Below are positions 1,081 through 7,895 of a stretch of 15,035 nt of DNA, in pieces. The stretch's first letter is position 1. The number at the start of each line of letters is the position of its first letter. The notes beneath the pieces were generated by a model. The model did no database searches, was not told the DNA's origin, and saw only the letters and a list, made by a program, of their open reading frames with translations. The position numbers and the translations under genes are program-made. Location: positions 1 through 15,035 of IMG/VR virus record IMGVR_UViG_2565956611_000003; one strand, given 5' to 3'. Source of the stretch: a virus (lineage: Duplodnaviria; Heunggongvirae; Uroviricota; Caudoviricetes).

Positions 1081-2738
1081 ACCCCATCAAATGCCGCAAG
1101 TCGCTCTTTCTGGCTGTCGCTCATATCAAATGCAAATTCCTCATGCTCAGCCTGGAATGTGCCAAACGCCATCAGCGCCGCAACGCTCGGGTCTATCTTA
1201 TTGGATGATTTTTTCTTGTTCGGCTTGATATTGGCGTTCGCGTCACTCTGCATCACAACATTACTCATTGACCAGGCCAGCACCGGATCACCACGATGAA
1301 CAATCACCTTCCGGTTAACAAAAACTTCGAACGATTTCGCCGCCGGACTAAAACGAAGGTACGTTTGCGGGAACGGCTCCACCTCAAATCCCGCTCCCTG
1401 TAGCTGCGTCCTCAGGTGCGTGGCGTTCCATGTATCGAAACCCACCAGCCTGATATTGAAATTCTCTGCATCCGCCATGATGTCATCACGGATACGGTCA
1501 TAATCAATGCAGTCACCCGGTGTTGTGCGTATCCAGCCCGCCTTTGCCCACTGGCGATAGATGGCGCGGTTTTTATTGGCAGGGTTCTGTAGCTGAAATT
1601 CCGGTAGATAGTGACGTGAAACCAGCATAATCTTTTTACCGACCGGAAAGGCATAGCACACGCTGGAAATATCGCTGGTTGATGATAAGTCCAGCCCCGC
1701 ATAGCACTCCTGCCCGTATAAATCCGCCTCAGCGAACGTTCCGGCGCACTCCGCCCATGCACCGTTACCCATCCACGGCGTAGCCCCCTGACACCAGATA
1801 TTGAATCGCTTGGTGAGCATTTCCACCCACTGCGACGGAATACCCCGCGCTTTCTGGATGGTTGAGGCCAGTTTTTCACGATCGACGGAAACATCGATAT
1901 TGGGATTCGCCTTTATCCACATCGCCGGATCGTCAACCTCGCTTTCATCATCCAGCTCGTAAATCAGTACGAACATGGATTCGTTCACCTCTTCACCATC
2001 CAGTATCTGGCAGCAATAGTCGTAGTGTTGTTTACAGGCTGAAACAACGTTGCTCCCCGATGTGGTGATGGCAAATAACAGCCCCTCCGGACGCGCCCCC
2101 ATCCCCAGTTCAAGTGCGGAATAAACCCCGTTGTCTGGGTGCAGGTGATATTCATCCACAATGGCAAGACTCGGGTTTGTCCCCTCAATGGTTGCCGCTT
2201 TTGCTGCCAGTGGCTTTAACAGGCTGTTGGTTTTCGGGTGTATCACCTTGTGCGCCTGAATATTTACCCGCTTTCGTAACGGTCGGGATAAAAGGCACAT
2301 CTGACGCGCATCATCAAACACGATCCGCGCCTGATCACGACTCACGGCGGCGGTGTAAATATCCTGCTGCCCGTTTTCCATAACCAGAAACCAGTTAGCC
2401 AGGATAGCGGCGACCGTGGATTTGGCATTTTTTCGCGGTACTTCAATGAATGCGCTGGTGTATTTGCGCCGTCCGGTGGCCTTAACCTTAAATCCCAGGA
2501 TGCAGGCAAAGGCGAACTGCTGCCACGGCTCAAGTTCAATGGGGCTACCGCGCATTGCGCCTTTTACGTGCGGGCACACCCGGGAAAAGGCAATAAACCG
2601 CTCCACGACCTCCGGATCGAACGTGTAAAGGGAGTTTTCAAGGTCAGAAAAATACCGTTTAACAGCCTGTTTCAGTCGTTTACAGGCCGTAATTTTGCCG
2701 TTTTTTACGCCTTCTGCGTACTCATGCCAGGCGGTCAA
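1077..2738 (-). CDS. terL: Terminase large subunit (Terminase_1 / HK97-like family)
   Basis: 553-aa ORF with a Walker-A-like motif (VPRKNAKST) near the N-terminus and typical TerL size. Start is TTG at 2738 preceded by a strong SD (AGAGGAAGAGGA) and overlaps the terS 3' end by 17 nt. Sits directly after TerS and HNH. Confidence 0.9.
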   Translation of the reverse strand: MTAWHEYAEGVKNGKITACKRLKQAVKRYFSDLENSLYTFDPEVVERFIAFSRVCPHVKGAMRGSPIELEPWQQFAFACILGFKVKATGRRKYTSAFIEVPRKNAKSTVAAILANWFLVMENGQQDIYTAAVSRDQARIVFDDARQMCLLSRPLRKRVNIQAHKVIHPKTNSLLKPLAAKAATIEGTNPSLAIVDEYHLHPDNGVYSALELGMGARPEGLLFAITTSGSNVVSACKQHYDYCCQILDGEEVNESMFVLIYELDDESEVDDPAMWIKANPNIDVSVDREKLASTIQKARGIPSQWVEMLTKRFNIWCQGATPWMGNGAWAECAGTFAEADLYGQECYAGLDLSSTSDISSVCYAFPVGKKIMLVSRHYLPEFQLQNPANKNRAIYRQWAKAGWIRTTPGDCIDYDRIRDDIMADAENFNIRLVGFDTWNATHLRTQLQGAGFEVEPFPQTYLRFSPAAKSFEVFVNRKVIVHRGDPVLAWSMSNVVMQSDANANIKPNKKKSSNKIDPSVAALMAFGTFQAEHEEFAFDMSDSQKERLAAFDGV

Positions 2739-3078
2739 GTTCGTCCTCTTCCTCTGTTTCCGGTGGATTTCTGCGACGGCTTACCGGGTCAAAACCCAGC
2801 AAAGAAGCCATTTTGATCATTATTCTTTCTGCGTCAGCCTTTGCGCTCAGTGCGGGGTTTCTGCTCTCGCTGCCCTGACTGTTAACAATGCTGAACCCGC
2901 GCGTCGCAAGGTCTTCGACGGCTTTGCGGTATATAGAGTAGTTAACGCAATACAGTTCCAGATTGCTCCAGTCGGCGGGGGTAAGGTCTTCCCGCCCGGA
3001 AAGCTGGCGTGATTTTTCCTTCCACTGCCTGACCGCGATTTCATCCAGGTAAGCGGGGGCTTTTGGTGGTCTTGCCAT
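2722..3078 (-). CDS. terS: Terminase small subunit, P27 family
   Basis: Translation from the internal ATG at 3078 (MARPPKAPAYLDEIAVRQW...LELYCVNYSIYRKAVEDL...RNPALSA...GFDPVSRRR) fits the P27-type small terminase pattern. The ORF-track N-terminal extension to 3219 has non-protein-like composition and would cover the putative cos region. Confidence 0.8.
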   Translation of the reverse strand: MARPPKAPAYLDEIAVRQWKEKSRQLSGREDLTPADWSNLELYCVNYSIYRKAVEDLATRGFSIVNSQGSESRNPALSAKADAERIMIKMASLLGFDPVSRRRNPPETEEEDELDRLA

Positions 3079-3129
3079 GTTCTTTTTTCGCCCAATTATT
3101 TTCAAAAAAATTACCGTGCACAAAAATTT

Positions 3130-3189
3130 GAGGGGGCGGTCGGTGTCCGGCAGGGACGGTTTCGTCCTGAAAACCACCCCCACCCCCTC
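3130..3189. other. Candidate cos / packaging recognition region between HNH and terS
   Basis: 288-bp non-coding gap (3079-3366). GAGGGGG (3130-3136) and CCCCCTC (3183-3189) flank a GGACG-GTTT-CGTCC hairpin (3154-3167), with C5 tracts at 3176-3187. HNH-cos-terS-terL is the usual layout of HK97-like cos phages. Confidence 0.35.
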
Positions 3190-3366
3190 TGACGGCCTCA
3201 CCAGCGATTGCGAAAACATTCCATGACCTCGCGGTCACGGTCGGTTAATCGCTTCGCTGTGGTGCGTTTTGTGCGCCCTGTCCTGTTGGCTTTGTGCTCT
3301 GTCTCCTGTGTCTTCCATGTGTCACGCTGCCTTATCAGTCCACGTATCAGCCTGGTTTGCTCCTGT

Positions 3367-3807
3367 TCAGTCATCATCGCCATACATCCAGTTGTTACGG
3401 TGTGCCGCCCGTTCTTCCTGCTCGCGATACATGCCCGCTTTACGGTTTGCTTTCGTGGCTGGATCTTCTCGTGTCGTCTTACGGTTGTGGCACGTCTGGC
3501 ACAATGCCTGGTGATTCCACTCAGGCCAGAAGAGAACATCACCGCCGCCATTGATGGGAATGATGTGATCCACCACAAGAGCTGGCGTATAAATCCCCTT
3601 AGCCAGACAACGCACGCATAACGGGTTTTTGCTCAGGTACAGGGCGCGGTATTTGTCCCACTGTCGGGAATACCCGCGCGCGCGGCGGTGTCCCCGTCTG
3701 GCATCCTCTGCACGCCATGCAGCCCGCCTGTGCTCTTCACACTTGCCGGACTTCACGCGCTTATTACAGCCAGGCTCAGTGCATCGCCTTAATGGTTGCC
3801 ACGGCAT
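3367..3807 (-). CDS. HNH endonuclease (terminase-associated, phage packaging type)
   Basis: 146-aa ORF with CxxC...DHIIPINGGG...N...CQTCHNRKT, a classic HNH zinc-finger nuclease motif. ATG at 3807 overlaps the connector stop by 1 nt. Located immediately upstream of terS. Confidence 0.85.
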   Translation of the reverse strand: MPWQPLRRCTEPGCNKRVKSGKCEEHRRAAWRAEDARRGHRRARGYSRQWDKYRALYLSKNPLCVRCLAKGIYTPALVVDHIIPINGGGDVLFWPEWNHQALCQTCHNRKTTREDPATKANRKAGMYREQEERAAHRNNWMYGDDD

Positions 3808-7388: not shown

Positions 7389-7895
7389 ATGAATTTAAGC
7401 GCAATGGTATATCCTGATACTTTCATAATTAATGGCGAATCATTCAGAGGTAAAAGAAACGCAAAAGAAAACAAGGTATTAATTCCATATACAAATGAAC
7501 CGGAAGTAACTATTGGTCAACACATTATCCAGCGTGTCGGTAAAAACGAGATAAATCTAAAAATTATAGATATGAAGTTGCTTCCCAATGGAACCCGCAG
7601 ACAGGGAACCAATCATCCAAATATGTTGACTCTCTATATTGAAAATATCACGGGAAATGAACATATGACGCCAACTAAAAGTAATACATTTAACATTGGT
7701 TCAATTAGTGGTGATCAAGTGCAGATAGGTGAGCATAACCATATGCTGGTAAACATCAGCATCACTGAACTGGTTGAAAAAGTCGCTAAATCGGGGGATG
7801 TACAAGCCAAATCAGTATTAAAGCAGTTACTGGAAAACAGTACCGTTGCCAGCATTGTTGGGGCTGGCGCAAGTGCCCTAATAGGCTTACTGTAA
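7389..7895 (+). CDS. Hypothetical protein (168 aa), AT-rich cargo gene with hydrophobic C-terminal segment
   Basis: ATG 7389 with AAGGA 7 nt upstream. Visibly AT-rich compared with flanking genes. The C-terminus (STVASIVGAGASALIGLL) is hydrophobic and Gly/Ala-rich. Stand-alone plus-strand gene followed by a strong terminator. No family recognised. Confidence 0.6.
   Translation: MNLSAMVYPDTFIINGESFRGKRNAKENKVLIPYTNEPEVTIGQHIIQRVGKNEINLKIIDMKLLPNGTRRQGTNHPNMLTLYIENITGNEHMTPTKSNTFNIGSISGDQVQIGEHNHMLVNISITELVEKVAKSGDVQAKSVLKQLLENSTVASIVGAGASALIGLL

Follow-up and report, generated by a model that had tools for sequence, protein, structure and literature searches.

The window analysed here, that is the whole stretch of 15,035 nt of DNA, carries every gene around its HNH-terS region on the minus strand. 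The minus-strand order starts with an integrase, DUF6387, DUF4222, a D5-type primase-helicase and SSB, as assigned by Pfam, and goes on with the major capsid protein, prohead protease, portal, head-tail connector, HNH, a small ORF, terS and terL. Among the genes concerned with packaging, the HNH endonuclease gene (3367-3807, minus strand; Pfam PF01844, E 8e-10; PHROG 144, E 5e-45; also so annotated by RefSeq) is followed by only one more gene before the predicted right genome end; terS, of the P27 family, occupies 2722-3078 on the minus strand (PF05119, E 1.6e-23; PHROG 83); and terL, with ATPase as well as nuclease domains, occupies 1077-2738 on the same strand (Pfam PF03354, E 4e-26; PF20441, E 3e-52). 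On the plus strand, opposite to these genes, a 168-aa ORF (7389-7895) stands between the capsid module and the replication module; Pfam gives no match for it, and in RefSeq it is a hypothetical protein.

The 15-kb window shows neither tail nor lysis genes, nor does the RefSeq-annotated SMS-3-5 island, which is flanked by thiM and whose boundaries are approximate. The island falls within the size range of capsid-forming PICIs (cf-PICIs), about 10-18 kb; its gene content and order are those of a cf-PICI, judged by the Pfam matches and by how RefSeq annotates this island in SMS-3-5, and the gene order in the window is the one published for cf-PICIs (bioRxiv 10.1101/2022.09.08.507074). What the window holds is a capsid-forming PICI of E. 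coli, related to the prototype EcCIEDL933, in whose host, EDL933, the copy of the region is 84.8% identical in DNA. The HNH-terS region is found in 515 of the 5426 complete E. coli genomes and is chromosomal in all of them. Some E. coli genomes hold up to five separate copies of it (558 places in the 515 genomes), which means that a single chromosome can hold several related cf-PICI-like islands.

Between HNH and terS, the first-pass annotation had described a non-coding gap of 288 bp (3079-3366). In fact most of this interval is filled by a conserved minus-strand gene of 58-61 aa (3198-3383, with its start at 3383 or 3374; RefSeq WP_001251188.1), and the intergenic DNA proper shrinks to 3079-3197, or 119 bp. 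The small ORF overlaps the HNH stop codon, and its own stop codon stands 10 nt ahead of the G-run described below. In identical islands RefSeq lists it as a hypothetical protein of 61 aa, and a match to PHROG 3173 covers its entire length with E 5e-27. In diverged relatives it is kept as a protein of 50-58 aa with a conserved C-terminal RDRExxECFRNR, and its pairwise identity by codon position is 0.70/0.72/0.60. This small basic PHROG 3173 ORF is conserved in enterobacterial cf-PICIs and absent from the Pasteurella cf-PICI Pmp8.

The intergenic DNA, read along the minus strand toward terS, has a layout that is shared with the elements compared below: a G-run, a spacer of 30-33 nt, the motif AC^CG(N8)^ where the carets mark the predicted nicks, then TCAAATTTT, and finally an A/T-tract. 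The G-run proper, G5TG5 (3174-3187, minus strand), is part of a conserved block A, GGGGGTGGGGGTGGTTTTCAGGAC (3164-3187, minus strand), which would be located close to the right end in the packaged genome; the G-run is a candidate termination or nuclease-positioning signal. From the G-run a spacer of 31 nt, variable in sequence and fixed in length, leads to the predicted nick (3143-3173, minus strand). Here the alignment to phi644-2 and HK97 places a predicted cosN with the 10-nt 3' overhang 5'-CGACCGCCCC-3' (3133-3142, minus strand). The predicted nicks, between 3133 and 3132 on the minus strand and between 3143 and 3142 on the plus strand, come from alignment only with an uncertainty of about 4 nt either way, and their context is CAC^CGACCGCCCC^CTCAAA. 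The predicted right end would read ...CTGCCGGACAC plus the 3' overhang, while the predicted left end would begin CTCAAATTTTTGTGC from 3132 downward (in a longer form 5'-CTCAAATTTTTGTGCACGG...), with CTCAAATTTTT (3122-3132, minus strand) as its first bases. At about +22 to +37 from the predicted cut comes the A/T-tract ATTTTTTTGAAAATAA (3096-3111, minus strand), a putative equivalent of a TerS site, and the terS ATG at 3078 stands 54 nt after the predicted cut, as compared with position 50 in the HK97 and phi644-2 records. The motif pair occurs once in the window, where 0 are expected by chance. Two further features were noted in this DNA. By eye only, an IHF-like core TCAANNNNTTG was seen to overlap TCAAATTTTTG; and at 3108-3129 there is a lineage-specific palindrome centred on GTGCAC with A/T runs on either side (AAATTTTTGTGCACGGTAATTT), which is missing in most relatives because they have ACGCAC there.

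To see which of these bases are conserved, the relatives were gathered by two routes, one by way of the TerS protein, free of DNA bias, and one by way of a DNA pattern, and they amount to 102 distinct intergenic sequences, 69 of which enter the alignment A1. All identities given here are pairwise means over the 67 unique loci found through TerS. The third codon positions of HNH, the small ORF and terS have an identity of 0.60-0.72. By the same measure block A (3187-3164) reaches 0.93, CACCGACCGCCCC 0.84, CTCAAATTTTT (3132-3122) 0.995 and the A/T-tract block 0.97 (measured over 3110-3095); the variable core of the spacer, 18 nt at 3146-3163, stays at 0.70, which is close to neutral, and the final 16 nt ahead of the terS ATG stay at 0.61. 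Blocks at 0.93-0.995 against third codon positions at 0.60-0.72 indicate strong purifying selection on specific non-coding blocks. Moreover, the spacer is 31 nt long in 43 of the 44 distinct spacers and 32 nt in the other one, and it measures 30-33 nt in HK97, phi644-2, Quink, Pmp8, ST64B and AbIPP1; this fixed length points to a helical-phase constraint. In Pmp8, whose TerS is 61% identical, the same layout is found without the small ORF. The predicted overhang itself differs by lineage, with CGACCGCCCC for the window and CACCCGCCCC for the Klebsiella cf-PICI.

The layout was compared with the joined genome ends of cos phages whose termini are mapped or deposited, the published termini being those in PMC2920897 and PMC11331095. 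A profile of the cf-PICI intergenic DNA, made from the 69 relatives in A1 and run with nhmmer in a search space of 0.16 Mb, matches the join of right end and left end in the Burkholderia phage phi644-2 with E 2.8e-5. The match is gapless across the junction of ACCGCCCGCTTC and GTCAAATTTTCACGC, and no gaps occur from ACCGCCC via TCAAATTTT to ACGC. The genome of phi644-2 has 10-base 3' extensions, the right one being 5'-CGCCCGCTTC-3' (PMC2920897); its record ends ...GGGGAGGGGGGTG, 30 nt, GGGAC CGCCCGCTTC and begins GTCAAATTTTCACGC..., the last gene being HNH and the first a PF05119 TerS. The predicted cut aligns without gaps to that of phi644-2, which reads ACC GCCCGCTTC before and GTCAAATTTT after the cut, as well as to that of HK97, which reads GAC CGCCGCCAAA before and GTTTGAATTT after it. 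The left-end equivalents of CTCAAATTTTT, namely GTCAAATTTT in phi644-2 and GTTTGAATTT in HK97, both stand at record position 1. The HK97 record (NC_002167) ends ...GGGCAGGGGGGGGG, 32 nt, ATGAC CGCCGCCAAA and begins GTTTGAATTTAACGCTAACCCGATTTTTTTAG..., and the record of the mycobacteriophage Quink ends ...GAGGGGGTGGGGGTGG, 32 nt, GGGGAC CGCTTGTCA. By nhmmer alone Quink is not significant (E 16) and no match to HK97 is reported, so the likeness to these two rests on short shared motifs and their spacing. The MAFFT alignment A2 of six junctions (the window, the Klebsiella and Pasteurella cf-PICIs, HK97, phi644-2 and Quink) is almost gapless, with G5, the ACC at the nick and TTT invariant. ST64B and AbIPP1 have the same layout at their HNH-terS junctions, and the G-run is at the same position in HK97, phi644-2, Quink, Pmp8, ST64B and AbIPP1. 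The cut in the window had at first been anchored on the second CGCC, with the overhang CGCCCCCTC(A); this placement was dropped after the gapless profile alignment to phi644-2, because that alignment restored the common spacing in which ACGC or GTGC lies 22 nt from the first overhang base.

Part of this DNA is also found in mycobacteriophages. When the intergenic DNA was compared with phage records by blastn, an exact 22-mer, GTCAGAGGGGGTGGGGGTGGTT (window 3172-3193, minus strand), was found in 152 mycobacteriophages, all of the genus Kostyavirus with genomes of about 75 kb. In 152 of 152 it lies 38-60 nt from the right record end (for example 76526-76547 in NC_022330), and its position relative to the cut is as in the window. 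Because of this 22-mer near right ends, the termini of phages that have a TerS of the present family, or the HNH-terS arrangement, were examined.

As for the left-end side, the minimal TerS site of HK97 has been mapped to +15 to +29, with T16, a G:C pair at 21 and an essential A-tract at 24-29 (PMC11331095), and all these published features fit the coordinates of the HK97 record. There CGATTTTTTTAG, at +21 to +32, is the counterpart of ATTTTTTTGAAAATAA in the window; in position and in composition the invariant A/T-tract block at +22 to +37 agrees with the mapped HK97 site, although the two TerS belong to different sequence families. In fact the TerS of the window has no detectable similarity to HK97 TerS by BLASTP (E 4), HK97 TerS has no PF05119 match, and no protein similarity of the present TerS to solved structures was found. 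The transfer of HK97 TerS binding to this element therefore rests on DNA similarity and position only, and the TerS-DNA contacts of HK97 are not transferable residue by residue.

Invariant non-coding blocks directly upstream of terS might also be expected of transcription control, that is, the A/T-tract and the G-run could be binding sites of a regulator or a promoter for terS-terL, and not packaging signals at all. One weak promoter-like match does exist, on the opposite strand only; the coding strand has no sigma-70-like match. Moreover the blocks are common to unrelated phages exactly at their genome termini, and the A-tract corresponds to the TerS site that was mapped in HK97, which together make an explanation by transcription extremely improbable.

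The inverted repeat in this region requires a separate treatment, since it had been the structural argument of the first-pass annotation for a cos site: GAGGGGG...CCCCCTC arms around an inner hairpin, with C5 tracts. These elements are all present. On the plus strand GAGGGGGCGG at 3130-3139 pairs with CCACCCCCTC at 3180-3189, so that the repeat extends over 3130-3189 and encloses the inner hairpin GGACGGTTTCGTCC at 3154-3167 and two C5 tracts; CCACCCCCACCCCCTC lies at 3174-3189. The arms, GAGGGGG(CGG) and (CCA)CCCCCTC, are 10 nt long, 90% complementary and 40 nt apart. The intergenic fold is moderately better than shuffles: the 122-nt intergenic strand folds as RNA with -45.1 kcal/mol and z -2.64 (1 of 200 shuffles as good), and as DNA with z -2.25 (4 of 200 as good). 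With such arms, which remain pairable in 81.5% of cells across the relatives in A1, a cos site that is recognised through an extruded hairpin or cruciform rather than through linear motifs would be conceivable. The relatives speak against it. The whole hairpin shows no covariation in A1, with 69.9% of cells paired as against 69.5% in column shuffles; both-side changes are seen in 1 of 14 outer-stem pairs and in 5 of 21 pairs overall, no more than in shuffles; the inner hairpin is paired in 47% of cells; and RNAalifold on A1 retains 7 G-C pairs, its covariation term being -0.16. The outer stem is pairable only because both of its arms are conserved. Furthermore HK97 and Quink, whose ends were inspected, have the G-run with no obvious matching C-rich arm, and stems of the nick-adjacent and spacer dyads, taken sequence by sequence, are no longer than in shuffles (3.8 vs 3.2 nt). 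One of these candidates, a short dyad just upstream of the nick (GTCC/GGAC, CCTC/GAGG, GGTGCC/GGCACC), had looked compensatory by eye, and it was rejected as well, with a fixed-column pairing of only 41.7%. A structure-dependent cos is therefore unlikely. The structural argument finds no support, and the hairpin is best read as incidental, a by-product of a G-run opposite a C-rich nick site; conservation marks the G-run, the nick motif and the A/T-tract as the signals, and not the fold.

The same hairpin might instead serve transcription, as an intrinsic terminator or attenuator placed between the head genes, HNH and small ORF on the one side and terS-terL on the other, with the cos located elsewhere. 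The strong GC-rich stem is indeed followed by AAATTTTTG on the coding strand. Nevertheless the terminator scan did not call it, because AAA separates the T-run from the stem; covariation is lacking, and Rfam gives no match at E up to 1 on both strands of 2900-3500. A terminator here would also cut terS-terL off from the operon, and it is these bases that line up with the physical ends of HK97 and phi644-2. We consider it very improbable, and return to the linear motifs of a cos site.

Evidence of a different kind comes from DNA that had been packaged into particles. The record vB_KppS-Ant (GenBank LR881103), linear and 16.5 kb long, has the gene content of a cf-PICI. It opens 22 nt ahead of terS and closes in block A, ...GGTTTTCAGGAC, and it is without exactly 69 nt that are present in the chromosomal copy of K. 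pneumoniae ATCC 13883 (NZ_KN046818), a strain which we take to be the same type strain as DSM 30104. The missing 69 nt consist of 21 nt, then the predicted overhang CACCCGCCCC, then 38 nt, the predicted Klebsiella cut being ...AGGCAC^CACCCGCCCC^CTCAAATTTT (locus L207, 3728-3850, in NZ_KN046818). The sequenced DNA of vB_KppS-Ant came from particles released by K. pneumoniae DSM 30104, by way of Nextera XT libraries (PMC8006926), and the packaged DNA of KpCIDSM30104, the element hosted by DSM 30104, is reported to concatemerise through cohesive ends (bioRxiv 10.1101/2025.02.11.637232). Since transposase libraries under-sample linear ends, DNA ended by cos should give a linear assembly that misses tens of bases per side. 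A second particle-derived record, PQ569648, breaks on either side of the same region, though the breaks in both records could also be assembly failures at homopolymer-rich DNA.

The labels of these two records deserve a remark. LR881103.1 is titled 'Escherichia phage vB_KppS-Ant', and in its own paper vB_KppS-Ant is called a filamentous ssDNA prophage (PMC8006926); by gene content it is the cf-PICI of K. pneumoniae DSM 30104. After terL it has a 2.3-kb gene annotated as tape measure protein; at that place the window offers no more than a 96-aa ORF (790-1080, PHROG 1561). PQ569648.1, 'Klebsiella phage P12620-1' (106.5 kb), is apparently a chimeric assembly of a large phage and a cf-PICI (88000-106503), the cf-PICI part running from the terS start codon to the last codons of the small ORF. 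Contig ends in general were also tried as a proxy for termini, and none lay at the predicted cut among 80 IMG/VR TerS loci, about 120 pattern loci and 73 metagenome contigs; the contigs that end nearby (L061, L241, L233) do so at unrelated positions, and contig ends are thus evidence neither way.

Headful packaging, or a cos elsewhere, is unlikely in view of the type of TerL, the homology described above, and the cohesive ends reported for cf-PICI DNA (bioRxiv 10.1101/2025.02.11.637232). From the sequence comparisons, window 3096-3187 (minus strand) is very probably the HK97-type cos site of a capsid-forming PICI. It lies between HNH and terS together with the cognate TerL, as in HK97-type phages, with the small ORF interposed, and the similarity continues across a mapped cut, both in the profile match to phi644-2 and in A2. 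The earlier proposal of a cos between HNH and terS, cut by the TerS, TerL and HNH of the island, hence finds support in the similarity to mapped cos ends, and its placement is also favoured by the purifying selection on the non-coding blocks and by the particle-derived linear assembly of a relative, which brackets the predicted cut. The exact nick positions, the binding of TerS and the role of HNH we infer by homology. A cos between HNH and terS is what one expects of a cf-PICI, and the prediction of the cut at base level is what is added here; no position or sequence of a cf-PICI cos was found in the preprints and papers searched, final journal versions aside.

In HK97, TerS binds the A-tract inside the left end, stalls, and positions TerL at cos, where HNH stimulates cleavage and a 10-nt 3' overhang is left (PMC11331095, PMC9410871). 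By analogy, a packaging mechanism can be proposed for the island. After induction the island would replicate into concatemers, on which its TerS would bind the A/T-tract at 3096-3111, about 22-37 bp inside the left end. TerL, positioned by TerS and aided by the HNH endonuclease, would nick the strands 10 nt apart and leave the 10-nt 3' overhang 5'-CGACCGCCCC-3' (3142-3133). Packaging would then proceed from the terS end toward decreasing window coordinates, round the unit genome, and would stop at the next cos, whose G-run lies 31 bp before the nick. Such a mechanism with the three proteins of the island itself fits the report that cf-PICIs package by their own HNH-TerS-TerL, and exclusively their own DNA (bioRxiv 10.1101/2022.09.08.507074).

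The role of the G-run calls for some more consideration. A G-run placed 30-33 bp upstream of the AC^CG nick is common to HK97 and to elements of Burkholderia, Salmonella, Acinetobacter and Pasteurella, and its distance of about three helical turns, kept across phyla, suggests a protein contact on the helix face of the nick. A tentative proposal, to which we give somewhat less than an even chance, is that the G-run is an undescribed and near-universal third element of HNH-associated 3'-cos sites, either as a cosQ-like termination signal or as a place where HNH or the TerL nuclease docks; a separate proposal, equally tentative, is that the PHROG 3173 protein is a lineage-specific cos accessory factor. 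The position of its gene, adjoining cos, suggests a packaging accessory role for this protein.

Among the known systems, HK97 (TerS gp1, TerL gp2, HNH gp74) is alike in having HNH upstream and terS downstream, about 50 nt after the cut, and in a G-run that ends 32 nt before the nick, the nick reading GAC^CGCCGCCAAA^G there and CAC^CGACCGCCCC^C here. It also has ACGC or GTGC at about +12 to +15, GATTTTTTT at about +22, which coincides with the mapped TerS-binding site, a 10-nt 3' overhang, and an HNH that stimulates its TerL cleavage. HK97 differs in its TerS, which is without detectable similarity and not of PF05119, and in its overhang sequence. Moreover HK97 is a complete phage in the order terS-terL-portal-protease-capsid, whereas here the head genes precede HNH and a small ORF lies between HNH and cos. 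The Burkholderia phages phi644-2, phiE125 and phi1026b are closer in having a PF05119 TerS, with HNH as the last gene, and phi644-2 gives the best DNA match, gapless over the nick and TCAAATTTT, with published 10-nt 3' extensions; however, their TerS is 34% identical, the overhang is CGCCCGCTTC, and they are full siphoviruses of another host. EcCIEDL933 and KpCIDSM30104 (the same as vB_KppS-Ant) belong to the same element family, with the same gene order and the same intergenic blocks. The cos of lambda (cosQ-cosN-cosB) is alike in its plan, with a nick site, a TerS-binding region on the left-end side and an upstream element on the right-end side, and the G-run is found on the side where lambda has cosQ. 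Nevertheless lambda is not of the same family: it makes 5' overhangs, does without an HNH, and its TerS is of the gpNu1 type, with R sites and an IHF site. The overhangs of lambda cos are 12 nt long and 5'. In one of the papers on HK97 they are given as '10-nt 5' overhangs' (PMC9410871).

The present result leaves the current picture of cf-PICI function unchanged. The capsids that cf-PICIs make for themselves take up no DNA but that of the cf-PICI, while the tails are borrowed from unrelated phages, and with such self-only packaging it is the cos that defines what gets mobilised. The prediction spans the cut positions, the overhang, the putative TerS site and the G-run together with their lineage variants. 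At base level it bears on the packaging specificity of satellites and helpers and on the engineering of cf-PICI delivery particles, and it makes the role of HNH testable. Moreover, the conserved layout could be used to annotate cos sites, and with them the true genome ends, in HK97-like phages and satellites by sequence alone.
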